DNA of 63,765 bases, the filler included, from Chrysochromulina tobinii (lineage: Eukaryota), in NCBI GenBank assembly GCA_001275005.1. It is 5 parts of 5 records of this genome, joined end to end, with 100 filler letters (N's around TTAATTAATTAA, not from the genome) between each part and the next. Parts side by side here need not be neighbours in the genome. Positions count along the whole stretch, not along the records: positions 30,557 to 43,854 come from JWZX01001200.1; 4 more parts are not named here. The stretch is one strand, 5' to 3'. Of this stretch, positions 12,691-59,607 are shown one piece after another. Numbering within the stretch: the first letter of the stretch is position 1; each line of letters begins with the position of its first letter. The notes below the pieces were generated by a model. The model was not told the origin of the DNA, ran no database searches, and was given only the letters and a program-made list of their open reading frames with translations. The position numbers and the translations under genes are program-made.

Positions 12691-15600
12691 TCATGCTATC
12701 GGGCCGCGGTCGCCATCGAACCGCTGGTAGGCCAGCAGGTACTCGGGGTAGATGTACTCCGAGTGGAAGACGATGTACTCGCGGTAGCGCGCGCCATTAT
12801 CCATGACGTCGGCAAGCAGCGAGTGGTGATGCACAGGCGGAGAGATGCCATGCACCGTACTCAGCTCGCGAAACGAGATTGGGAAGACGGGGCGACCATT
12901 GTCTGTGCTCTTTGCTCCCTGCCCATTCTGCTGCGTGCGCACTTGATGACCGAGCGCCACGCGGCACACGAGGATGTAGAAGACCTTGCCCTGGTGGCGC
13001 GCCCCGTGCGCGTACAGCCGCTTGTGCAACTCCGAGCTCCCATCGTACTGCGAATCTACCTTGGTGTACTGGTCATTCTTGCCCGCGTCCTCAGCCAGGT
13101 AGGAGCCCTCGCCGTATGCGGCTCCTGCGGCCGTGCCGGCAAAGCGCTCGTTCATGCCCGCGGAGAGGATGTTGATGAGCACGCCAGCGTTCGTACCGTG
13201 CATCAGGAAGGCCTCATTGACATCCACGCGAAGGTCGCCGGGTAGGGCGTCTGCTACGCGGCGTGTAAGCGGTGGTACGCCGCCCGCGGATGCCACGCCC
13301 CCCTGCCGGATGCGCTTCATGCCGTTCATCACCTCCTGCACGCCGACCATGTACTTCTCCCAAAGCACCCTGTTCTCGAGACGCCACGCGCACGCGAGCT
13401 TGAGCCGGTCGTGCGTGGTGCCCCTCCGATCGGCACCGCTCTGTTTCAGCTTCACTGGGTCGGTCTGTAGCAGCCGCTCGAGTGCGGCCCAAGTGCCCCG
13501 GTCGCGGCCAGTGCGGTCGAGGGCGATCGCAGCGAAGCCATCCGGCGAGCTATTCGCAATGTGCTTCTCCCAGTAGTCGGGCATGACGCGGGCCTTGGTG
13601 CGCGCGGTACGAAGCTCCTCGCGCTCCGTCCTGGCCTTGGCTTCTGCACGCTCCGCCTCGGCCTGTCTGTGCGCACACTCGCGCGCTACGCGCTCTTCCT
13701 CGGCGGTGAGCTTCTGCAGCTCTGCAGTGCGAGCCGCTGCGCTCTCAGAGAGCTGCTGCACTCTCTGCCGCTCTTGTTCGAGGCGGCGCTGCTCGCGCTG
13801 TATCTCGTTGCGCTTCGCCGCCGCATCGCGCTCGCTCTGCTGCGCTGCAATCTCAAGCGCCTCCTCCTGCTCCGCCTGCCTGCGACGCAGCTCGGCCTCC
13901 CGCCACGCCGCCTCGCGATGCAGACGCGCTGCCTCGCGCTCGACAGCAGCCATCTGCTGCGCCGCCTCGTGTGACGCCGCTGCGACCGTCTGCTGCGCCT
14001 GCATACTCGCCTCGGCCGCCGCCTGCTGCGCACGAGCACTCACCTCGAGCGCCGCGGCCGTGTCGAGGAATGCGTGCCGAAGCGTCTGGCTAGCGCTCAG
14101 TCGCCGCGCGAGGGCCTCTTCGTTGGTCGTCGCCACTGCGAGGAGGCTGTCGAGGAGTGACGTGAGGTGCTCATCGGCGAGCGTAGCTGCATCGCGCGAC
14201 CAGCGCGCGAGCTGCCGGCCGTCCTCCCCCGCGAAACGTCGCACTGCCTGCTGCTGCGCGCTCGCATCGGCTGGTAGGCAGCACGCGAAGAGGCAGCAGA
14301 CGCCGTAGGAGAACATGTCGCCCATCGCGGTGGGCTTGGCATCTCGCTCGCGGCCATCTCTGCTTGCCTGGAGGATCTCGGGCGCCACGTAGAGCTCGGT
14401 GAAGGCGTTGCTACCGCCCGTGCTCGCGCTCAGGCTGCTGCGCGTGGCCGTCGTGCGTTGGCGGCGCGCGGACTCGAAGTCGGCAAGGTGCGCCGTCGCG
14501 CGCTCTCCCTCGAGAGACACGAGTGTATTCTCAAGCTTGACGTCGCCGTGCGCGAGGCCGTGGCTGTGCACGTGGCGGAGCGCCTCGCACAGCTGCCCAA
14601 GCAGCGCCTTGCGTCGCCACACCTCGGGCGCCGTCTTGGTCAGCCACTGGAGCATGTCACCGCCATTGTAGTACGGAAGCTGCACGTAGGCCGCCGTGTG
14701 GTCTGGGGTCTCAAATACGGCCTGCACGTCGGCCACGTACGGGCAGCTGGCGAGTCGCCGCAGGACCGTGACCTCCTTGACGAGGGCCTTCCACTCGTCG
14801 CGACTGTCGAGCTTGTACTCCTTGAGCACGCACGCCTCGCCGTCGTAGCTCGCTCTCCAAACTTCGTGTCTCGCATCCTTGTCGCTCAGCCGAGCCTCGC
14901 GCTCATAGTGTGCCAGCTCGCGCTCGACGAGCACCGCGCGCACTTCATCCTCGTCGAGGCCGTCGGCCTTGCCCACGCGCAGCAGCACCTCGCGCGCGAA
15001 CAACTCGGGGAAGTGCGCCGACGCGAGCGTCGCCGCCTCGAAGCGCGCTTGGTGCAGTGCTTTCTCCGCGGCCTGCACGGCGCGGCGGGCGACCTTGAGA
15101 GCGGCCTGCGCGGGTGCGAGGTCGACGCCGTCCTCCCTGGCGTCCTCGAGGCCGCGCGTGCTGTCGCGCAGAGTGCGCTTCGCCTTCTTGAGCGCCTCGT
15201 GCTTCTCGTGCAGATCCTCCAGGCTGGGCGGCTCGCCGCTCACGTGGCGCCCAAAGTCCTCGCGCTCCTCGCGCACTCTGCCGATCTGCACAACCCACTC
15301 ATCGAGCGTGGGCAGAAGCACATCGCGCAGGCGCTCCAGCCGCAACCGCTTGGTGAGCGTGAGCTCGCGCTCAGCCTGCTGCTGCTGCAACGAGGCCGCC
15401 TCCTCCACCTTGTTCTGCCGCTGGTCCTCGGCACGGCGCTCCTCGTGCATGCTCAGCGCATCATCGAGCACACGGACCAAGGCGATGCGTGCCTCGTTTC
15501 GCACCTTGGTGGCTTCGAGCAGTGACTCTTCATCAACTGCTGCCGTCATGGCCACGAGGCGCACGAGGTCCTGCGCCTCGCGAAGCTGTGTGCGGGCCTC

Positions 15601-15786
15601 GTCCATCTTTGCCAGCGCCGTCTTCCAATTGTCAACATTGTCGAGCGTAGCGGTTGCAGCTGTAAGCCGGCTCCAGCTATAAGCCGCCGCGTCGGCTGCG
15701 CCCTCCTTGGTGAGGCGAAAGGAGGCGCGCGAGAGGGCCGCGGCGATCTCGGCGCTGTTGCGCTCAGCGTTGTCGGGCATGTTCAC
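12691..15786 (-). CDS. Protein kinase-like domain + coiled coil + C-terminal PARP catalytic domain fusion
   Basis: Kinase motifs CVLKEY, HGDVKLEN, LADFES, YVAPE, GDMFSYG; PARP motifs NEAFLMHGT, GAAYGEGSYLAE, LVCRVALG, YREYIVF..EYIYPEYLLAYQ; single exon, 1031 aa. Confidence 0.85.
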   Translation of the reverse strand: MNMPDNAERNSAEIAAALSRASFRLTKEGAADAAAYSWSRLTAATATLDNVDNWKTALAKMDEARTQLREAQDLVRLVAMTAAVDEESLLEATKVRNEARIALVRVLDDALSMHEERRAEDQRQNKVEEAASLQQQQAERELTLTKRLRLERLRDVLLPTLDEWVVQIGRVREEREDFGRHVSGEPPSLEDLHEKHEALKKAKRTLRDSTRGLEDAREDGVDLAPAQAALKVARRAVQAAEKALHQARFEAATLASAHFPELFAREVLLRVGKADGLDEDEVRAVLVERELAHYEREARLSDKDARHEVWRASYDGEACVLKEYKLDSRDEWKALVKEVTVLRRLASCPYVADVQAVFETPDHTAAYVQLPYYNGGDMLQWLTKTAPEVWRRKALLGQLCEALRHVHSHGLAHGDVKLENTLVSLEGERATAHLADFESARRQRTTATRSSLSASTGGSNAFTELYVAPEILQASRDGRERDAKPTAMGDMFSYGVCCLFACCLPADASAQQQAVRRFAGEDGRQLARWSRDAATLADEHLTSLLDSLLAVATTNEEALARRLSASQTLRHAFLDTAAALEVSARAQQAAAEASMQAQQTVAAASHEAAQQMAAVEREAARLHREAAWREAELRRRQAEQEEALEIAAQQSERDAAAKRNEIQREQRRLEQERQRVQQLSESAAARTAELQKLTAEEERVARECAHRQAEAERAEAKARTEREELRTARTKARVMPDYWEKHIANSSPDGFAAIALDRTGRDRGTWAALERLLQTDPVKLKQSGADRRGTTHDRLKLACAWRLENRVLWEKYMVGVQEVMNGMKRIRQGGVASAGGVPPLTRRVADALPGDLRVDVNEAFLMHGTNAGVLINILSAGMNERFAGTAAGAAYGEGSYLAEDAGKNDQYTKVDSQYDGSSELHKRLYAHGARHQGKVFYILVCRVALGHQVRTQQNGQGAKSTDNGRPVFPISFRELSTVHGISPPVHHHSLLADVMDNGARYREYIVFHSEYIYPEYLLAYQRFDGDRGPIA

Positions 15787-15929
15787 TGCGGCGAAAGTTC
15801 AGTGTTAATACACACAACACGTACAGATCACGCGTGAATGCTGTGAACAGGCTTCGTACCGCCGTCCAGGTGCCTAACGGTTGACGGGAGTTTCAAGTTT
15901 GAACCCGTTGCCGCGCGACCAAGTTCAGT

Positions 15930-17627
15930 ATGGCGCTCTTGGCGCTGGGGCTGCTCCATCTCTCGCCAGCTCCACCCCGCTCTCTGATCTCCGGCTCGCA
16001 CCCGATGCATGCAGCCCGTGCGGCAGTCTCGGCAGTGCGCCAGCGCAGTTGCCATTGCTGTGCGAGCGCCACTCGCTCGGCGCGCGCCATCGACCTTGCG
16101 GAGCGGCATTGCAGCCCGGAGCCAGCGCGCTTTGCTGCACTGCGTGATGAGACGGCCCAACGCTGGCCTGGCGGCGCGCACATGGTGAGCGGTGCACAGC
16201 AGGGCCGGCTGCTGCACATGCTCGTGCGGCTCTCGCGCGCCTCGCGCGTGCTCGAGGTCGGCTGCTTCAGCGGCTATGCTGCAATGTGGATGGGGCTCGC
16301 GCTGCCTGCAGGCGGCAAGCTGCTGAGCCTCGAGCGCGACGAGCGCGCGGCGGCGGTGGCGAGGGCGCATCTGGCGTCAGCAGGGCTGAGCGATCGCGTG
16401 GAGGTGCGGCTAGGCGACGCGATGGACGCGCTCGAGGCGCTTCCCGGGCCGCGGTGCGGCGAGGCGCCGTTTGAGCTCATCTTCCTCGATGCGGACAAGA
16501 AGCGGAGCTGGGAGTACCTGGAGCTGATCGTGTCGCGCCAGCTACTCGCATCGCACGGGCTGCTCCTCATCGACAACGTGCTCTGGAAGGGCGAGGTGCT
16601 CGCCCGCCTCGACCCGGCCGCCGTGTGTGCGACTAGTGCCGCGGCCTCGAGCCTGACGCCCTCGGCGCGTCGTTCAATGGAGCTGCGCGATGCACTGCAT
16701 GCCTTCTCGACGCGGCTGGCGGCGGATGAGCGCATGGATCAGCTCCTACTGCCGCTGCGTGACGGCCTCACCTGGGCGCAGCACGCACCAGCCTCGGGCG
16801 CAAGCGAGGCCGCGTCCAGTGAGGATCCACGCGCATGGGATGCCACACATGAGGATAAGATGGCGGCGTACCTGCGCTTCGTAGGAAGCCCAGAGCCCTC
16901 AAAGCTTGCAGCCCTGCGCCAAGCGCTGGCAGCCGAGGCAGCGAGCGCCGCAGAAGAGACGGGATACGACTCTGCTGCTGCTGCGCAGGCAGCCGCGACG
17001 ACGAGGATCTCCCGAGGATCTCCCGAGGATCTCGCGAGGATCTCCCGCGAGTGGTGCGGCGTGCAGCAGGGCCGGCTGCTGCACATGCTCGTGCGGCTCT
17101 CGCGCGCCTCGCGCGTGCTCGAGGTCGGCTGCTTCAGCGGCTATGCCGCAATGTGGATGGGGCTCGCGCTGCCTGCAGGCGGCAAGCTGCTAAGCCTCGA
17201 GCGCGACGAGCGCGCGGCGGCGGTGGCGAGGGCGCATCTGGCGTCAGCAGGGCTGAGCGATCGCGTGGAGGTGCGGCTAGGCGACGCGATGGACGCGCTC
17301 GGGGCGCTTCCCGGGCCGTTTGAGCTCATTGTGATCTCCGCTGAGGCGCTTCAAGTGGTGCCAAGTGCGGAGGCGGCCATGCGGTGTGCACTCGCCAACC
17401 TCGCATCGCACGGGCTTGTAATTGTTGTGGCCCAGCCAGCGACAGTATCCGAGGACCCGACTATTCACGAGCATGCCCGGCAAGAGGATGCACCGAGGGG
17501 AGCTCTCGTGCCGATGCTGCTCAGCCTCGCGCGACAGGTGGAGCCAGCCGCGCACGCGGTGACGCTGCCCTCTCCGGACGGTGATGGTGGGGTCCTCACG
17601 CTCATCGGCCGGACGCTTGAGATGTAG
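15930..17627 (+). CDS. O-methyltransferase (Methyltransf_3, CCoAOMT/COMT-like) with tandemly duplicated domain; N-terminal signal/transit peptide
   Basis: QGRLLHMLVRLSRASRVLEVGCFSGY..., FELIFLDADK, GLLLIDNVLWKG, LPLRDGL; the second copy of the SAM-binding part starts at ~17064. Confidence 0.88.
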   Translation: MALLALGLLHLSPAPPRSLISGSHPMHAARAAVSAVRQRSCHCCASATRSARAIDLAERHCSPEPARFAALRDETAQRWPGGAHMVSGAQQGRLLHMLVRLSRASRVLEVGCFSGYAAMWMGLALPAGGKLLSLERDERAAAVARAHLASAGLSDRVEVRLGDAMDALEALPGPRCGEAPFELIFLDADKKRSWEYLELIVSRQLLASHGLLLIDNVLWKGEVLARLDPAAVCATSAAASSLTPSARRSMELRDALHAFSTRLAADERMDQLLLPLRDGLTWAQHAPASGASEAASSEDPRAWDATHEDKMAAYLRFVGSPEPSKLAALRQALAAEAASAAEETGYDSAAAAQAAATTRISRGSPEDLARISREWCGVQQGRLLHMLVRLSRASRVLEVGCFSGYAAMWMGLALPAGGKLLSLERDERAAAVARAHLASAGLSDRVEVRLGDAMDALGALPGPFELIVISAEALQVVPSAEAAMRCALANLASHGLVIVVAQPATVSEDPTIHEHARQEDAPRGALVPMLLSLARQVEPAAHAVTLPSPDGDGGVLTLIGRTLEM

Positions 17628-18404: not shown

Positions 18405-18504
18405 NNNNNNNNNNNNNNNNNNNNNNNNNNNNNNNNNNNNNNNNNNNNTTAATTAATTAANNNNNNNNNNNNNNNNNNNNNNNNNNNNNNNNNNNNNNNN
18501 NNNN
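18405..18504. other. Artificial contig spacer
   Basis: 44 N + TTAATTAATTAA + 44 N. Confidence 0.98.
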
Positions 18505-29117: not shown

Positions 29118-29258
29118 TCAGATGCAGACGTGCTTGCGTTGACTGGCAGAAGTGCGGGTGTCAGTCTTCGGTCACTACACACACGCGCTGTGTTGAACAG
29201 ATTTTCGCTTCCATCGCGGAACACGGGTCACATCTTTTTCGCTCCTTTTTTCTGCCGT

Positions 29259-29336
29259 GTGACGCCCAAAGTTACACGGCTGTGAACCCAACGTGAAAGG
29301 GCCAGATTACAGGACGGTATCCATCATGGAACCAGA
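29259..29336. repeat. Dispersed ~78-bp repeat, copy 1 (inverted copy at 30560-30638)
   Basis: gtgacgcccaaagttac...aacgtgaaagg...ccatcatggaaccaga matches the reverse complement of 30560-30638 with scattered mismatches. Confidence 0.8.
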
Positions 29337-30456: not shown

Positions 30457-30556
30457 NNNNNNNNNNNNNNNNNNNNNNNNNNNNNNNNNNNNNNNNNNNN
30501 TTAATTAATTAANNNNNNNNNNNNNNNNNNNNNNNNNNNNNNNNNNNNNNNNNNNN
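30457..30556. other. Artificial contig spacer
   Basis: 44 N + TTAATTAATTAA + 44 N. Confidence 0.98.
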
Positions 30557-30638: not shown

Positions 30639-30940
30639 GCAGCACTCAATGTCAAAAATTTCGACTGTACCCAATACATTGTACTTGTAGTTACGCTGCC
30701 ATCGATGTACGCTGCGTACATTGTATGCGGTATGGCGTACCGCACATGAAATGGCACCGTATCATTGGCATGTCCGTCAAACGCTGTGCCTTTCGGGTAA
30801 CGTACCAATACAGCCACAATTATATTTGAAATATTTTTCAATGCCGCGATTCGTTGATTGGTTCATCGACGGTCGGTCAGATTTCTTAATGGATAATGCG
30901 ACGTTCAGAGTTCGATTGCGCGACTCCCAAGGTACGTGTA

Positions 30941-31065
30941 CACAACAACAAAACTTGATTCGTAACCAAGTTCGTTACTAGGTCTGGGGTTGGTAACGAA
31001 CTACTAACCTCACTACCAACCCCTGACGTTGGTAGTGAACTACTAACGTTGGTAGTGTCGTCGGC
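30941..31065 (+). repeat. Left terminal inverted repeat (perfect part; imperfect to ~31098)
   Basis: cacaacaacaaaacttgattcgtaacc...ggtagtgtcgtcggc is the exact reverse complement of 35619-35743. Confidence 0.97.
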
Positions 31066-31192
31066 TTTTTGGTGGTTTGATCACAGTAGATTACAGTACT
31101 ATCCACACTACACAGTATTCACACTATGAGCTCATTCACGGGGGCTGCTGGCTTCCAGGAGATACACTCCGCGCCGCGCTCTCTCGCTGATC

Positions 31193-33074
31193 TCATGCTG
31201 CGCGAGCCCGCCAGGCCGCAAACGCCTCACAGTGTTGCACATGCTCGAGAGGCTCCCACGTGTTGTCATCCGCGCTCCACCCTTCCCACTTGACAAGGAA
31301 TTCCGTTTTCTTTCCTTTGATGCGCTCGTCCACGATGCACTCGACGTCATACGCATCCGCGTCGCTGCTCTCGTCGCTGCTCTCGTCGTTGCTCTCCTCC
31401 ATGATCTCATCGTCGCTGCTCTCGTCGCCCAGGGCGTAATGTTCATCGAACAAGCCCGTCTTCTTGGTCTTCTTGGCTGCACCTGTTGGCCTCTTGGCTG
31501 CCACCGGGGGCTCCTTCGGTGGCTCCTTCGTCACGTACTTCGCCTTGAGCCAGCCGGACTTGAAGTTGAAGACGGAAATCTTCAACCAGTGCTCGTCGAC
31601 GAGGGTGACGTCATCGGCTTGATACAGCGTCTTCTCCTCGATAATCTCCACCCTTGCACCCTTATCAACGCACAGGGCGTAATCGTTCTCGACGTCAATG
31701 TAGATGATGTTCGCTTCCTGACCTGATGGCTCGGGCGCGGACCGCAATCCGATCGATTCGGTCAGTGAGGTGATGACGCCGAAGGACTTTGCTGCTGGCT
31801 CCAGAGGCCTCTTCGCAGCGGCGGCCTTTGGTGCTTTCGCAGCGGCGGCCCTTGCTGATTTGGCGAGCGTTTTTGCAGCAGGAACGCGCCCCTTTTTTGC
31901 GCGCTGCGTCCCTGCTGGTGGAACGATGGGCGGCATAACCTCGTCGCCCAAGCATGGTGGGCGCGGCGGCAGCACGTTGCTTGCCACAGTAGCTGCGTCA
32001 CGCAGGATCTGAAGGTTAGCAGCTTTTGTTGTTGGAGACAGCTTGCGCATCGCAATAGAAGGCGCAACCTGTGGCTTTGCTTGCAAAGCGCCAGCCAGCA
32101 CGAGCTTGTTGGGGGCAGGCGGCTCCGCGCGAGGCGCGGAAGGCTGCGTCGTCGGGATCACGTTCTCCTTGGTGTTCACGAAGTACTTGGGCTCCTGTGC
32201 GACAGTTGTGACCGAGCCCAGAAAGAGTTTGTCGAGCGAGCCGTCGCGAGCTGTACCGTCAATGTCGGCCTGGTCAACCACGTGTTGGAGGCTCTTCGAA
32301 TAGATCGTCTGTGAGGAGGCAGCACAGATGTACAGTCAGTAAATATGTGCAAAAAGGCGGAGTGAGCAGGATCTGCGAGCGTACCGAAGCGCTGCTCCGA
32401 CGGCCCATTGCCGCGCGACCCTTGAGGATTTTTTTCCAATCGCCACTAAACGCGGGCTTGCCGAGGTACTTCAACTTCAGCAGCTTGGCGTACCTCTTCT
32501 CCACTTCCTTGTCGCCAGAGACGTAGTTGTCGGCGAGTGCACGCTGCAGGAACACGTGCTTCGAGATCTGCTTGGTGTCGTTCGCCGATAGGTCGTTGAC
32601 GAACGGGTTCTCTGTCTCGTACTCCATGGTGTCAAGCACACCGGGAAGCTGGATCGCGTCCAGTGTGCCTTCAAGCTTGAGCTTCTCGCCGAGCTTGATG
32701 TTGTCCTTGGGCGCGTACGAAGGCGCCCTGACACCGCCAGCGCTGCTGAGCACCAGAGCAGCAGACACGGGCGCACCTGGAGCAATGGTGGTGAACTGAT
32801 GCTGGAGAAGGTGTTGGATTGAACGCATCCAACCAAGACGACCTTCCGGATGCGTCTCCGACTGAGTTGCCTTGACGACCACGTTCTGGATCATTGCGAC
32901 TGTGACCCATGGTTGCCTCAAGCAGCCCACCGTGATCAACCCGAACTCGGACGCGAGTGATTCGTGGATTTGTCTTGCCTCATCCATGAAGCCCATCTGT
33001 TTTCCGACGACTTCATTCCAGAAGGACGCGCTCATATCGTCGTCGCTGAACTTCTTGAAGGCGACGAGCGCCAT
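31193..33074 (-). CDS. Transposon-borne accessory protein (~601 aa): unknown N-terminal domain, SH3-like domain, acidic tract, C-terminal chromodomain; exons 33074-32385, 32308-31193
   Basis: GT-AG intron 32309-32384 joins the two ORFs in frame; ALCVDKGARVEIIEE...HWLKI...SGWLKAKYV is SH3-like; YDVECIVDERIKGKKTEFLVKWEGWSADDNTWEPLEHV is a chromodomain. Confidence 0.85.
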
Positions 33075-33165
33075 CGAGACAGCCGGCAGCCCACGACACT
33101 TGAACGACGAGCGGCATTGTCAGCTCACCAGATGAGATTTGAATGAAAGGCAGTCTCTCCAAATA

Positions 33166-33323
33166 TTTGAAAACACGAGCTGTGAAACCCAGAAACCCCA
33201 ATAGTTTCGACCTCATTACAGCCTTATGAGTGGCCTCAGTACTATTTATACAGTTTCGTTGGTCTGCTATTTTTATTTGTCAATCAGTCAGTTTCTGATT
33301 TGAAAACTCGAGCTCTGAAACCC
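33166..33323. promoter_or_regulatory. Duplicated 25-bp motif in the divergent promoter region of the transposon
   Basis: tttgaaaacacgagctgtgaaaccc (~33166-33190) and tttgaaaactcgagctctgaaaccc (~33299-33323), between the two ATGs. Confidence 0.5.
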
Positions 33324-33358
33324 AGTCTCGCCCCAATAATTTGGATCTGAACGCGTCG

Positions 33359-35552
33359 ATGCGCTGTGGAGGTTGCGAGCGGCAGATCAAGAGCTTGGCG
33401 GCACACCTGCGAGAGAACACTCCCTGCCGCAGCTTTTACGAGGACGATGACTCTGACGAGGACATATCGAAGTCGGTGCCGATCGATGATAGTGACGATG
33501 AAGTGACCAAGTCGATCATAGAAGATGGGCACACATCAACGAGAGTGCAGATGGTTGCCGCAGACCTGGCAGACCTCCGCTTCGAGCATGGCCTCAACCA
33601 GGAGGGCATCGTTGCGCTTCAATCGTCGGTGCGCCGGTGGATGAAGGACGTCGCAAACGATGTTGCCAGGGAGCTCGAAGCTCTCGTGTCTTCGGGTTTG
33701 TTGGCGACCGAGCGCGCGCAGAGAGTGGCCGACAAGGTGGGCGTGGACATCTTCGCTTCGCTTTCGACCGCCCATCAGGAGCTCATGCAAATGAAGAAAG
33801 GCACGCGCTATCTCGAACCGCGGATCACCACGATTGGCAGCGAGACCGTTGCTTCGTTCGACCTCGGCGAACTGTACGCTCGGCACCTGCAAACTGACGA
33901 GAGCTTTCGGAAGCTCGTTGTTCGCAAGTCGGACGCCTGGAAAACAGGAGACAAGTGGCGGACGCAGCCCACGACTCTCGCTGACATTGAGGACGGGGTC
34001 GCGATGCGTTTTCATCCTCATCTCTTGCGGCCTGCAACATCCGACGAGGCCATCGACCTTCGCATCGCTATTAATGTTAACGCTGACGATATCGAGGTGC
34101 GTCCGGCGGAGACACGTGATTGTTGCCCGCCGCTGCCCTCATCCTAATCTCGTGCTCTGCAGGTAGCTAACCCCCTTGGCACTGCCCGAGGAGAGCATAA
34201 AGAATGTGGCGTGCAAATCGCAACGTGCAACCTACCGGCGACTGAGAGATTCAAGATGGAGAACATCTTCTTGCACACTCTCGCAAAGGCTAAGCTGTAC
34301 AAGAAGGTAGGCATGTCGAGAGTCCTGTGCGGCGTGGACCAAGCAACGGGCAAGGTTCACACGGACGAGCCGAATCTCGCCAGAGACCTTCGCGAGCTTA
34401 GCACGGTTGGCAGGCTAATCGAGATCCCCGACGATGTTCATGGCGGGTCAACAACAGTACGGCTGAAAGTCTACCATATCGTGTCTTCGTGTGACTATCT
34501 GGGTGCCATGTCGTTGCTCCCAAACGCCGAGTCTCCCGGGTCGCACTTCTTCTGCCGTACGTGCTACGTGGATGCCTCTGACGCTGACTGCCACCGCCCC
34601 TTCTCATTTACCATTTATGCGGACTCAGCAGGCGGGTAAGCGCAAGATTCCGGAGCGCAACTGGCCCGAGCTCAAGGAGGTGATTGCAAAGCTGCGCAAA
34701 GGCGAGGGCGACAGCAAGAAGATCATGCACGACCACGGTCTCAACAAGCTGTTCTTTGCGCTCGATCCTGATTACATCCCGCACGTGGACCCAACCACAA
34801 TCGCACCGATCGACCTGCTTCACCTCTTCCCAGATGGCCTGCTGCGGTCTGAGCTCGCGTGGATGCTGTTCATCTTCATGAAGATGGGCCTCAAGACCGA
34901 CGCCATCAACACGCGTGTGCGTGCGTATAGCAGGCAGAGCCCAACATTCCCCAAGGACGTGCGCATCCCGGCCTTCAAGGACAAGTTGTCGAAAGGGATC
35001 AAAGGCGGCATACCTGACTCCTCCTCGACCGTCAACATGACAGGCTCGCAATGCATGCACTTTTCAGTGCACAGGTGAGCGCAATAGCATGTTGCCCCGC
35101 TCACACTGCAAACTGACGGTCGCAATGCACCCTGCTCCTCTCGCAGCGCGCAGATCCTGCAACCCATCCTGACAGCGCAGATGATGGCGCACCCGGCCTG
35201 GGCAAGCTGGCTCAAGCTGGTGGAACTTTTTGCGTACACCCTGCAATCGGAGCTGCAGGTCAACGACATCAAGGTCATCGACACCCTCCAGCTGCAACAC
35301 TCGTCGCTTTTTGATGCGGTCCCCGAGTACAATGGCCTGAAGCGACCCAAGCACCACTTCTGTACTCATCTAGCTGATGATATCTACAGGTACGGGCCAC
35401 CGCGCGGCTTTTGGTGCTTTGGGTTCGAGGGCTTCAATAGGATAATCAAGAGAGGAGCACGCATGAGTAACTGGAAGAACACTACTGTCAGTATCATGCA
35501 GTATTGGTCAGCGCGGTCCGCACGCGCATTGATGCGTATGTGCGGCGGATGA
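33359..35552 (+). pseudogene. CMC/EnSpm-type DDE transposase, frameshifted (about 682 aa when repaired); exons 33359-34096, 34163-35074, 35147-35552
   Basis: NADDIE|VANPLG..HK, NLP, CDYLG, ES...FCRTC, DLLHLFPDG, PKHHFCTH, YGP...WCFGFEG, NWKN; N-terminal CxxC...H...C zinc finger; 7-nt duplication at 34605-34617 shifts the frame. Confidence 0.85.
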
Positions 35553-35618
35553 GCTCGATACACGATAGTGTGAATGGTGTACCGTGAATACTGTAATCTA
35601 CTGTAATCACCACAAAAG

Positions 35619-35743
35619 GCCGACGACACTACCAACGTTAGTAGTTCACTACCAACGTCAGGGGTTGGTAGTGAGGTTAGTAGTTCGTTACCAACCCCAG
35701 ACCTAGTAACGAACTTGGTTACGAATCAAGTTTTGTTGTTGTG
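35619..35743 (-). repeat. Right terminal inverted repeat
   Basis: Exact reverse complement of 30941-31065. Confidence 0.97.
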
Positions 35744-35831
35744 TAGCACACGCTGCCTGGTGGCATTTTTTACTTACTTACTTACTACAAGGTGCGACAT
35801 GCGAGGACGACCTACACAAACTCGCCCCGGC

Positions 35832-37958
35832 TCATACGAAAGTTGGTATGGCCTCGACGCAAACAAAGTTCTTGCCGCACTCCTCGACGAGGACGCCTGA
35901 AGCCTTGCCGGGGGTCACTTCTATCGAGACCTCCATCATGGTCATCGGCGGGAAGAGCCACTCCTTCTCATCCTCGAACTGCGAGAGCAGGCTGATGTCC
36001 GCGCCTCGATGGTAGCCTGCATCCGTCTCCGGCCCGCATTTGAGGCACCACAGTAGGTTGGGCGCGCCGTTGCCAGCCATGTAGTGCAGCGCCGTCTCGC
36101 GTTCGGCAGAGGTGGACATGAAGGCCGTCTCCGTGGCGATGATGGTGCCGATCTCGTCTGCCAGCCAAAACGTCTTGGGAAGCTCGCCACGTGCTCCGCG
36201 CCAGAGATGTGTGCATGCCTCCTCGGGTGTCGACACAGCGCTCAGCTTGCGAATCCCATTGATGACGTGGCGCGTGGTGGCCACGAACGTGAGGCTCGCA
36301 TGGCGCGCGAGCTGCTCACGGAACTGGCCATCCAATTTGCTCACGTTGCGCAAGAAGGCGTTGATGGGCTGGAAAGCCGGGCCGGAGTACAGCCGGATAG
36401 CGAGCACCTCGTCGAGTGTTAGGAATGCATGCTCGTCTTCCAGGAAGGTTCCGTGACCTTTCTGCCTCCGATTGAGGATGAATTCGTTCACGCGCTCTTG
36501 GAACTCAGCGGGCATGCATCCCCCATTGCGTGCGTCGCGTGTGCCTGGCGTGCAATCGTCCAAGGGCAGCGCCGGACCGCACACGTACTGGAACTCGTCA
36601 CGCGCACAGTAGTGTCGCCCCTTCCAATCTTTCCATTCCAGGTCGCGATCCCACTCTAGCGCCATCGTGAGCACCGGGCGCGCGAGCACGTCGTCGAGGC
36701 CGCTGACAAACTCTTTGCGGCACGCGTAGCTCAGTGTGACCAGGTCGGCGACTCCACACAGCTTCGCTCCAATCGAGAATTCCTCACCATCGGCCACCTC
36801 TGCATCGGCGTCATCGCTGCACGCGGCACCATTAGGCTTCCTATACGTCGCGGTGAAGACGAGCAGCCGTTGACGCGGGAAGACGCCTGGCACGGGAGAC
36901 TCCCAACCGCCGGCCGGCACCACCTGCTTGAGACGAAACAGGCAATTGGGCGGGAACACGCCGCTCTCTTTGCTCGTCATCACCGGCGAGTGGCACCCAA
37001 ACTCGTCGTCCTCGGCCGTCTCGAAGCACACCACGTCCGACTCCTGCATCGTATACACGTACCCTCCGTCGCTCCCTTTCGAGCGCACGACGAAGCCGCC
37101 CTCGCCGAACACATCCCTCGAAGCGCTGCACGTGCCAGTGACGAGCGAAGAGCCACTCAGCCCACGAAAGCCCGTCGCGTCGCCCCTCTCCACGGACGCG
37201 TCGGCCCAACGAGGATCGCGGTCGGCTAGGGAATCGAAGCCCTTTCGGTACCAGTACAAACGCGGAGGCAGCGGATAGCCCTCTTGACGCTGAGTGGAGC
37301 GCTGCGCGTGAATGACGTTGAAGAGCGCGTGCGTCGATGCCGAGTAGCTTGGGTCATGAGAAGCGAGTGCTGTCGATAAGATGCCGTTCACAGCCGGGTT
37401 CGAAAGTACGCGGAAACACTCGGCACGCTTCCCTGGCCATCCGATGGCGGTCGCGCGCTTGATGGCGTCCGAGAGCGAATCGATCATCCAATCGAGGTCC
37501 TGGTGCTTACGCACGTACTCCTCGTTGGCCTGGTCGTGTTTGCCAGCGCGCCTATTCGATGCGACCTTCATGCTGACCCACTCGTCTCTCCATGTGCGAC
37601 CTTCTGGCGCCGGGCCGATCTGGTCCTCGAGTGTTTTGAGATGACCGGCACGCGATGTTGGCGCCTCCTGCGGTACAAGCGTCTCGAGAGCCTGCTGAGA
37701 GCGCTTCAGCTCTTGCTGAAGCGTCAAGATGGATTGTCGGACGAGAGCCACAGCCGCATCTCCGCTTCCTGGGTCATCCTTGATGAGTTGGCCGGCTCGC
37801 AGGATGTAGATTGCGTGTTCAGATGAGGTGCGGCACCTCGAAAGGGCGACACCCATGATGCGCTTGCGCAACTGCTCGAGGGCGTAGGCGAGGGCGGCGG
37901 CGGCGAGGGCGGCGGTGGTGAGGGAGAGGGCTTGGCGCATTGGAGAACTTCTGTACAT
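35832..37958 (-). CDS. ADP-ribosyltransferase (R-S-E/ARTC class) with an upstream degenerate ART-like domain
   Basis: AIRLYSGPAFQPINAFLR, LWRG, FMSTS, GADISLLSQFEDEKEWLFPP; an earlier segment ends similarly in SGVFPPNCLFRL. Confidence 0.8.
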   Translation of the reverse strand: MYRSSPMRQALSLTTAALAAAALAYALEQLRKRIMGVALSRCRTSSEHAIYILRAGQLIKDDPGSGDAAVALVRQSILTLQQELKRSQQALETLVPQEAPTSRAGHLKTLEDQIGPAPEGRTWRDEWVSMKVASNRRAGKHDQANEEYVRKHQDLDWMIDSLSDAIKRATAIGWPGKRAECFRVLSNPAVNGILSTALASHDPSYSASTHALFNVIHAQRSTQRQEGYPLPPRLYWYRKGFDSLADRDPRWADASVERGDATGFRGLSGSSLVTGTCSASRDVFGEGGFVVRSKGSDGGYVYTMQESDVVCFETAEDDEFGCHSPVMTSKESGVFPPNCLFRLKQVVPAGGWESPVPGVFPRQRLLVFTATYRKPNGAACSDDADAEVADGEEFSIGAKLCGVADLVTLSYACRKEFVSGLDDVLARPVLTMALEWDRDLEWKDWKGRHYCARDEFQYVCGPALPLDDCTPGTRDARNGGCMPAEFQERVNEFILNRRQKGHGTFLEDEHAFLTLDEVLAIRLYSGPAFQPINAFLRNVSKLDGQFREQLARHASLTFVATTRHVINGIRKLSAVSTPEEACTHLWRGARGELPKTFWLADEIGTIIATETAFMSTSAERETALHYMAGNGAPNLLWCLKCGPETDAGYHRGADISLLSQFEDEKEWLFPPMTMMEVSIEVTPGKASGVLVEECGKNFVCVEAIPTFV

Positions 37959-38102
37959 GAAGTTTTGCTACCACAATGCAAACAAGTTTCGGGCGGCGCT
38001 GCGCTGCTGGTGGTCTGTTCGCGCAGAGAACAGTGTGGAACTGCCTGTGGAAACACTTTTGACGCGAGGGGGACCTTCGTTTTTGCACGCGACGCGAGGC
38101 CA

Positions 38103-43854: not shown

Positions 43855-43954
43855 NNNNNNNNNNNNNNNNNNNNNNNNNNNNNNNNNNNNNNNNNNNNTT
43901 AATTAATTAANNNNNNNNNNNNNNNNNNNNNNNNNNNNNNNNNNNNNNNNNNNN
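43855..43954. other. Artificial contig spacer
   Basis: 44 N + TTAATTAATTAA + 44 N. Confidence 0.98.
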
Positions 43955-59507: not shown

Positions 59508-59607
59508 NNNNNNNNNNNNNNNNNNNNNNNNNNNNNNNNNNNNNNNNNNNNTTAATTAATTAANNNNNNNNNNNNNNNNNNNNNNNNNNNNNNNNNNNNN
59601 NNNNNNN
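59508..59607. other. Artificial contig spacer
   Basis: 44 N + TTAATTAATTAA + 44 N. Confidence 0.98.

Follow-up and report, generated by a model that had tools for sequence, protein, structure and literature searches.

Positions 30941–35743 of the window, that is, of the whole stretch of 63,765 nucleotides (nt) of Chrysochromulina tobinii DNA that was analysed (assembly GCA_001275005.1), hold a 4803-nt element that is bounded by terminal inverted repeats (TIRs) and contains two spliced genes arranged head-to-head, a transposase gene on the plus strand and a partner gene, open reading frame 2 (ORF2), on the minus strand. The transposase gene is frameshifted, the pairing of the two genes is conserved in related families, and ORF2 ends in a chromodomain with cage residues. 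Our preferred reading, held tentatively, is that the element is a frameshifted member of a family of DNA transposons with two genes, one for a RAG1/Transib-like transposase and one for a conserved partner, and that the partner protein may bind the element ends, dock on methylated histones and steer insertion into silenced chromatin. The features of the element are as follows (aa, amino acids).

30939..30940, no strand: left TA flank, probable 2-nt target duplication
30941..31065, plus: left TIR, 125 nt, first bases CACAAC
31193..32308, minus: ORF2 exon 2, with low-complexity linker, SH3-like segment, basic and acidic tracts, chromodomain and stop
31196..31351, minus: chromodomain, aa 550–601, with cage positions Y550, W571 and W574
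31543..31756, minus: tentative SH3-like segment, about aa 415–486 (SH3_3 E 0.022, below the cut-off)
32309..32384, minus: ORF2 intron, 76 nt, GT-AG; the homologue P0035 has a 28-aa read-through insert here
32385..33074, minus: ORF2 exon 1, 230 aa, with predicted SAM-like domain at aa 4–93 (33065–32796) and predicted helical bundle at aa about 123–226 (32708–32397)
33075..33358, no strand: divergent promoter region, 284 nt, containing a 26-nt direct repeat
33359..34096, plus: transposase exon 1, with N-terminal CxxC zinc-finger-like motif and first catalytic D in NADD (34079–34090)
34097..34162, plus: transposase intron 1, 66 nt; one X14 RNA contig shows it spliced out, and the intronless homologue P0017 lacks it
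34163..35074, plus: transposase exon 2, with second D (34487–34501), CxxC (34553–34564) and LH (34812–34823)
34605..34611, plus: 7-nt insertion (CATTT repeated around AC), a frameshift with a stop at 34637–34639
35075..35146, plus: transposase intron 2, 72 nt, position conserved in homologues
35147..35552, plus: transposase exon 3, with H-x3-H (35352–35369), catalytic E (35421–35435) and stop
35619..35743, minus: right TIR, 125 nt
35744..35745, no strand: right TA flank

Structure and conservation of ORF2

ORF2 encodes 601 aa and has a single 76-nt GT-AG intron (32384–32309). Its C-terminus matches Chromo (PF00385) with E 1.6e-15, above the cut-off, and the best PDB sequence matches of this domain are CDYL, CBX2, LHP1, MPP8 and HP1. 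The initial annotation had placed a divergent spliced gene of about 601 aa with a chromodomain here, and both points agree with the present analysis. Y550, W571 and W574 line up with aromatic positions of CDYL and are presumably the aromatic cage, and the ORF2 chromodomain is predicted to read methylated histones. The intron position recurs in the family, where 77 of 96 rows have Val (GTN) 4–8 aa past the exon end motif. None of the RNA contigs spans the ORF2 intron and most of ORF2 lacks RNA cover, so that the RNA is uninformative on this point. No catalytic domain was found in Pfam scans of ORF2 and family proteins, and no chromoshadow domain was matched in ORF2 or the homologues scanned. 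An assignment of ORF2 to HP1 was rejected because the chromodomain is C-terminal and the chromoshadow domain is unmatched. An SH3-like domain that had also been proposed stays tentative: matches in three proteins including P0035 and P0113 have E-values of 0.022, 0.0054 and 0.0035, all below the cut-off, the cross-family profiles, one of three being mis-anchored and disregarded, score no better than shuffles and are not significant, and the segment is missing in L003 and P0065.

A metagenome scan returned 18 transposase loci, one of which (L006) is the window locus itself. The upstream DNA is no longer than 224 nt in 11 of the remaining 17, which are not judgeable, and at least 700 nt in six. 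An ORF2 homologue lies head-to-head with the transposase gene in five of these six (L001, L003, L005, L009 and L018), these loci having about 30–42% identity in transposase exon 1; in L013, which matches only in part and has tandem repeats upstream, an ORF2 homologue was not found. A tblastn search with P0035 recovered three of the five pairings independently (E 8e-11, 1e-7 and 0.002); those of L005 and L018 were recognised by visual inspection, and the profile scores there are partly circular. ORF2 is thus a conserved partner gene and not a one-off capture, the first of two objections that the initial annotation had raised against itself. The second, that ORF2 might be a decayed HP1 gene, fails as well: the chromoshadow domain is unmatched, the N-terminal half belongs to a family of its own, and the domains of ORF2 are 79–92% identical to those of P0035 (75/86, 96/104, 62/78 and 46/53) as against 43–69% in the linkers (20/29, 77/140 and 25/58). 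On the evidence of this alignment, the excess of domain over linker conservation is a pattern of purifying selection.

The N-terminal half, which the initial annotation missed, is the best-conserved part of ORF2. A profile of this half recovers 205 clusters at 50% identity, a family without a Pfam name; 150 of the clusters are listed, and among those 14 are at least 380 aa long. The AF2 model of ORF2 exon 1 has a pLDDT of 91. In a structure search with this model, about 29 of the 50 top rows are SAM, PNT or TEL-SAM entries that match on aa 1–93 (Z 4.1–5.8), as counted from entry titles and known domain content, and the best clean SAM match has Z 5.6 with a root-mean-square deviation (rmsd) of 2.7 over 68 aligned residues. 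For aa 138–230, folded within exon 1, the BEN rows BEND6 and Bsg25A score Z 4.2, tied with unrelated rows. An Atlas search with the ORF2 homologue P0039 gave no match. The models suggest that the N-terminal half consists of a SAM-like fold followed by a helical bundle.

Chromodomains also occur in distant families, namely in L003 (E 3e-6), P0065 (E 1.5e-5) and P0113 (E 1.1e-3, below the cut-off), and also in P0035. L003 is the only locus that includes the 3' end of ORF2, and P0138 terminates in the first residues of a chromodomain. Since most gene calls stop in the conserved intron or at contig ends, a missing Chromo match is uninformative.

Transposase gene and frameshift

The transposase gene consists of three exons and two introns. 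Splicing, as initially proposed, is seen for intron 1 in the RNA contig noted above; the spliced form of intron 2 was not seen in RNA, where one contig retains this intron, and the product is not intact. The 7-nt insertion, which can be placed in the repeat only to within a few bases, truncates the product to 404 aa, ahead of LH, H-x3-H and the catalytic E, which the window copy encodes beyond the frameshift, and the frame without it comprises 682 codons and a stop. Because a 4613-nt unitig carrying the insertion matches with 0 differences in all four DNA runs, the frameshift is not an assembly slip, these runs being possibly the window's own source and so not independent. One RNA contig from a freshwater sample is without the 7 nt. 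In the cluster of P0001 and P0002, 12 of the 13 proteins that cover the insertion site are in frame, the remaining one being the truncated form of the window copy, and the database alleles P0239, P0246 and P0248 are in frame across the site with the same local residues. An intron excising the frameshift (34568–34628 or 34557-based) was rejected because the donor is poor or the CxxC is lost, and it is also contradicted by homologues and one RNA contig that read straight through. The window copy as it stands is therefore non-autonomous, with a broken transposase, and close relatives have unbroken alleles. Such a copy would need transposase in trans and may still supply ORF2.

The CATTT-AC-CATTT arrangement at 34605–34611 resembles an excision footprint or slippage. 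The intronless transposase P0017 is encoded at L001 1261–3333, whereas two introns, conserved in position, are retained in most relatives. Two loci possibly represent non-autonomous forms: L013 1–920 is a repeat-filled partial derivative, and in L012 a perfect 33-nt inverted repeat (99–131 and 793–825) flanks the transposase C-terminus.

Searches for transposase homologues returned 33 sequences at first and then 56, none with a precomputed Pfam domain. A Pfam scan of 69 aligned transposase sequences matched a transposase family in none, Transposase_21 (TnpD) being unmatched in all 69 at E up to 1; three of the 69 match DUF1258, a weak lead with a best E of 0.069. The catalytic triad motifs NADD, xDYL and GFE are conserved in the alignments A1 and A5, D363 being present in 57 of 62 spanning rows. 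The C(2)C motif, which lies after the second D and before the E (C383 in 58 of 63 rows and C386 in 57 of 63), and also the LH motif and the H(3-4)H motif (HHFCTH at 35352–35369) are conserved too, in accordance with the signatures first read from the sequence. A model of P0017 with a low-confidence pLDDT of 57 matches RAGL (Z 8.2, rmsd 3.9, 145 aligned), RAG1 (Z 8.0) and Transib (Z 6.7), the RAG1-like match extending over the helical insertion domain only. Foldseek ranked RAG1 first for this model with E 0.12, and nothing in the PDB and viral libraries had E under 0.001. Atlas look-alikes of P0239 fall in clusters with RAG1 (26–42% of members), Transposase_21 (13%) and Plavaka (18%). PDB sequence searches with the alignments A1 and A3 gave nothing usable, and viral-contig scans were empty.

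Termini and target site

The two 125-nt TIRs are mutually perfect, and the element ends as TA|CAC...GTG|TA, exactly matching the boundaries, length and repeats first reported. The left TIR contains three copies of ACTACCAAC and two of TAACGAAC, in both orientations, and a repeated terminal motif specific to the family is present in every one of the six families examined. Of the 14 loci with a match reaching the transposase C-terminus, 11 have a G[CT]TGTG end; where a locus had several end-motif matches, the one closing the repeat-rich terminus was chosen by eye. The dinucleotide after these 11 ends is TA in five, the window locus included, TG in four and CA in two, against a background of 143/567 for TA, TG or CA after TGTG. 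Strict TA target specificity was accordingly rejected, related ends also preceding TG and CA, and the target is a pyrimidine-purine step, not TA alone. The TA target sites of the initial annotation thus hold on both sides of the window copy and do not hold for its relatives. We infer that TA is the duplicated target site of this copy; an empty site was not seen in DNA-run unitigs, and a second element with both ends was not found among the loci examined.

Near-perfect copies of the 26-nt direct repeat in the promoter region lie at 33167–33192 and 33300–33325, one beside each gene. Between the two genes of L005 (1621–1788), copies of the terminal motif are clustered and a perfect palindrome of 66 nt occurs.

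Relation to known systems

The transposase conforms to the CMCT clade described in Kojima 2025 (PMC12730594; comparisons with this and the other cited papers hold for the parts of them drawn on) in its sequence features: DDE triad, C(2)C, H(3-4)H, 5'-CA..TG-3' termini and a predicted RAG1/Transib-like fold. The initial classification stands as far as a cut-and-paste CMC/CMCT element with its own chromodomain gene is concerned, and fails for CACTA/EnSpm proper, which was rejected because of the CACAAC end, the differing flanking 3-mers GTA and TAG, and Transposase_21 in 0/69 sequences. Like EnSpm/CACTA elements with TnpD and TnpA, the element combines a transposase with a second protein and family-specific clusters of terminal motifs (bioRxiv 10.64898/2026.08.24.746577), and it differs from them in being without Transposase_21, a CACTA/CACTG end and a 3-nt duplication. 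TnpA has tandem helix-turn-helix domains and is restricted to flowering plants (bioRxiv 10.64898/2026.08.24.746577), whereas ORF2 is divergently transcribed and has a chromodomain and a predicted SAM-like domain.

ESTA elements share with the window copy CAC-started ends, TA flanks and a RAG1-like transposase in which both C(2)C and H(3-4)H are present (PMC12730594). Their ends are mostly CACCAC and in some cases CACAGC, as compared with CACAAC/CACAGC in the window lineage, and the ESTA entries among those listed are fungal, mostly 7–12 kb long and carry TET/JBP cargo, a chromodomain being unmentioned in the parts drawn on (PMC12730594). Compared by ends and description, the relatives of the window copy differ from ESTA in also using TG and CA, and, despite the CAC termini, the strict TA specificity of ESTA fails, TA following only 5 of 11 ends. 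Plavaka elements of fungi and red algae resemble the element in their CMCT transposase, algal hosts and chromatin-related accessory genes, and differ in their ends, TGT..ACA or CATCA..TGATG, and in their cargo of writers and erasers (SET, methylase, 2OG oxygenase) within 17–19 kb elements, as against a reader in 4.8 kb (PMC12730594; 10.1101/2025.02.11.637652; 10.1101/2025.10.09.681428). An assignment to Plavaka was rejected because neither type of end is present and the Plavaka Pfam domain is unmatched.

The chromodomain/Tudor integrases of Gypsy elements, chromoviruses included, provide a chromodomain in a mobile element that is tied to heterochromatic insertion; there, however, the element is a retrotransposon and the domain is fused to the integrase, whereas ORF2 is a separate gene of a cut-and-paste element (PMC6839031, PMC12477816). 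The literature thus shows chromodomains in Gypsy and writer/eraser cargo in Plavaka, ESTA and others (PMC12730594, PMC6839031, PMC12477816). Among the full-text literature matches listed, and in the parts of them drawn on, there was no CMCT element with a chromodomain partner gene; Repbase and subscription journals lay outside this search, and a prior annotation is possible. RAG1-RAG2/ProtoRAG is similar to the element in having a RAG1-like fold and a second gene with a histone reader on an acidic linker, and differs in that the kelch propeller and PHD of RAG2 are unmatched in ORF2 and the genes of the element are head-to-head. The PHD of RAG2 reads H3K4me3.

Copy number and genomic surroundings

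Copy numbers were derived from unitig depth. The depth of the element interior equals that of the flanks (for example, 43.5 versus 39.5 and 54), and the TIR unitig is 2.6–2.9 times deeper than that. The source therefore contains a single full copy that is near-identical, plus roughly one additional TIR-like end. Among the matches listed, a second contig, diverged and indel-rich, tentatively joins a chromodomain-like stretch to a TIR-like stretch. One RNA-run contig has 137 unrelated bases followed by the element from exactly 30941, with a 15-nt insert containing one extra terminal motif, and the unrelated bases point to another insertion site.

High-copy repeats flank the insertion, within 300 nt to its left and at 6 nt to its right. 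A very high-depth repeat lies at the contig start (30560–30644), with an 87% inverted copy at 29253–29336 across the assembly gap. The right one is a short multi-copy repeat ending in TTAC units (35750–35786), which occurs in many DNA and RNA contigs with differing flanks and may be the tail of another mobile element. Transfer RNA and Rfam scans near the element, the 30560–30644/29253–29336 repeat included, gave no match. The intronless gene at 35832–37967 on the minus strand, whose stop is 88 nt from the right TIR, encodes 702 aa with an ADP-ribosyltransferase domain (ADPrib_exo_Tox, E 2e-5) and has paralogues in the same genome. The 90% cluster of a gene neighbouring the element includes a protein of Chrysochromulina parva, which makes a host in this haptophyte genus probable. 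Elsewhere in the window, a protein kinase fused to a PARP catalytic domain is encoded at 12691–15798 (minus), and tandem O-methyltransferase domains at 15903–17627 (plus), where a 263-nt internal duplication is 98% identical. Linkers, consisting of runs of N around a fixed palindrome, occupy 18405–18504, 30457–30556, 43855–43954 and 59508–59607. Since the element starts 384 nt after a linker, its left neighbourhood beyond that linker is not assured.

Possible roles of ORF2

On the basis of family knowledge, the DDE transposase would cut at the CAC ends and insert at a TA, TG or CA step, probably duplicating 2 nt. The ORF2 helical bundle may bind the family-specific TIR motifs, like TnpA in Spm, and the SAM-like domain may oligomerise ORF2 along these motifs and help to pair the ends. 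The long flexible linker would let the chromodomain hold an H3K9- or H3K27-methylated nucleosome, and docking on the nucleosome would bias target capture in the manner of chromoviruses. Our analysis slightly favours insertion targeting over an anti-silencing role because of the precedent of chromoviruses, the absence of a catalytic domain from ORF2 and the repeats beside this one insertion. It is also conceivable, with less confidence than the steering of insertion as such, that the two proteins together form a haptophyte RAG1-like two-subunit machine whose second subunit, combining a SAM-like polymer, a DNA-binding bundle and a chromodomain, aims insertion at heterochromatin via repressive methylation; chromoviruses would then have a counterpart among DNA transposons, and the reader arrangement of RAG1-RAG2 an independent parallel.

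Several observations weigh against the steering of insertion by ORF2. Genes are densely packed around the insertion, with the stop codon of one of them 88 nt away. Chromo is matched in only 2 of 39 scanned family proteins of at least 300 aa, and some families may lack a chromodomain. A complete cage is seen in the window, P0035 and P0065, whereas L003 and P0113 have an insertion at its third position. The SAM and BEN Z-scores are in a range described as common by the tool, sequence searches of the ORF2 N-terminal half against Pfam and PDB were empty, and Pfam SAM matched 0 of 105 members. ORF2 and transposase identities do not co-vary across six pairs (Mantel p 0.45).

A rather unlikely, though serious, alternative is that ORF2 is an anti-silencing or self-activating factor of the TnpA/VANC type, which would find its own silenced copies through the TIR motif and methylated histone and open the ends or the divergent promoter without steering insertion. 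TnpA acts on dense motif clusters of the Spm termini while H3K9me persists (bioRxiv 10.64898/2026.08.24.746577), chromatin-modifying cargo is frequent in CMCT elements (PMC12730594; 10.1101/2025.02.11.637652), and the motif cluster between the L005 genes would suit such a factor; however, terminal motifs recur in the promoter region of only this one of the five elements tested, and ORF2 is without a catalytic domain. Polycomb/HP1-type spreading proteins offer a model for an opposite role, in which DNA binding, SAM polymer and chromodomain together would damp the element and spare the host. The resemblance of a SAM-like fold plus chromodomain to repressive chromatin proteins, and the small number of copies that each family has in the source genome, are consistent with such a self-limiting repressor, but the shared divergent promoter fits co-expression with the transposase, and the transposon accessory chromatin factors in the cited papers, as far as drawn on, are activators or putative anti-silencers; we regard this role as improbable.

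Hardly more probable is that the essential accessory domain is formed by the N-terminal half, a few families having separately acquired chromodomains as optional add-ons. The element-borne chromodomains are only 22–38% identical across families, below the identity of the window chromodomain to CDYL, the 2/39 count is low, and the SH3-like segment is present in some proteins and not in L003 or P0065. Nevertheless, the C-terminal position after an acidic tract is common to the window, L003, P0065, P0113 and, partially, P0138, and L003 and P0113 have a common insertion after the cage Trp, which argues against separate acquisition. That ORF2 is passive cargo, a captured fragment of a host HP1-like gene, is largely refuted and very improbable: the chromodomain is canonical, as a captured one would be, but head-to-head pairing, intron position and domain-over-linker conservation are all kept, and the chromoshadow domain is unmatched.

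Significance

Chromodomain-guided insertion has been described for retrotransposons, and the accessory genes described for CMCT elements are DNA binders or chromatin writers and erasers. With a compact and conserved pair of transposase and reader that has unbroken alleles, target choice by histone marks in cut-and-paste elements becomes testable, as does the repeated recruitment of histone readers by RAG1-type enzymes. The analysis also defines a protein family of 205 clusters and a transposase lineage, both unnamed in Pfam, from a group of algae in which mobile DNA has received little study.

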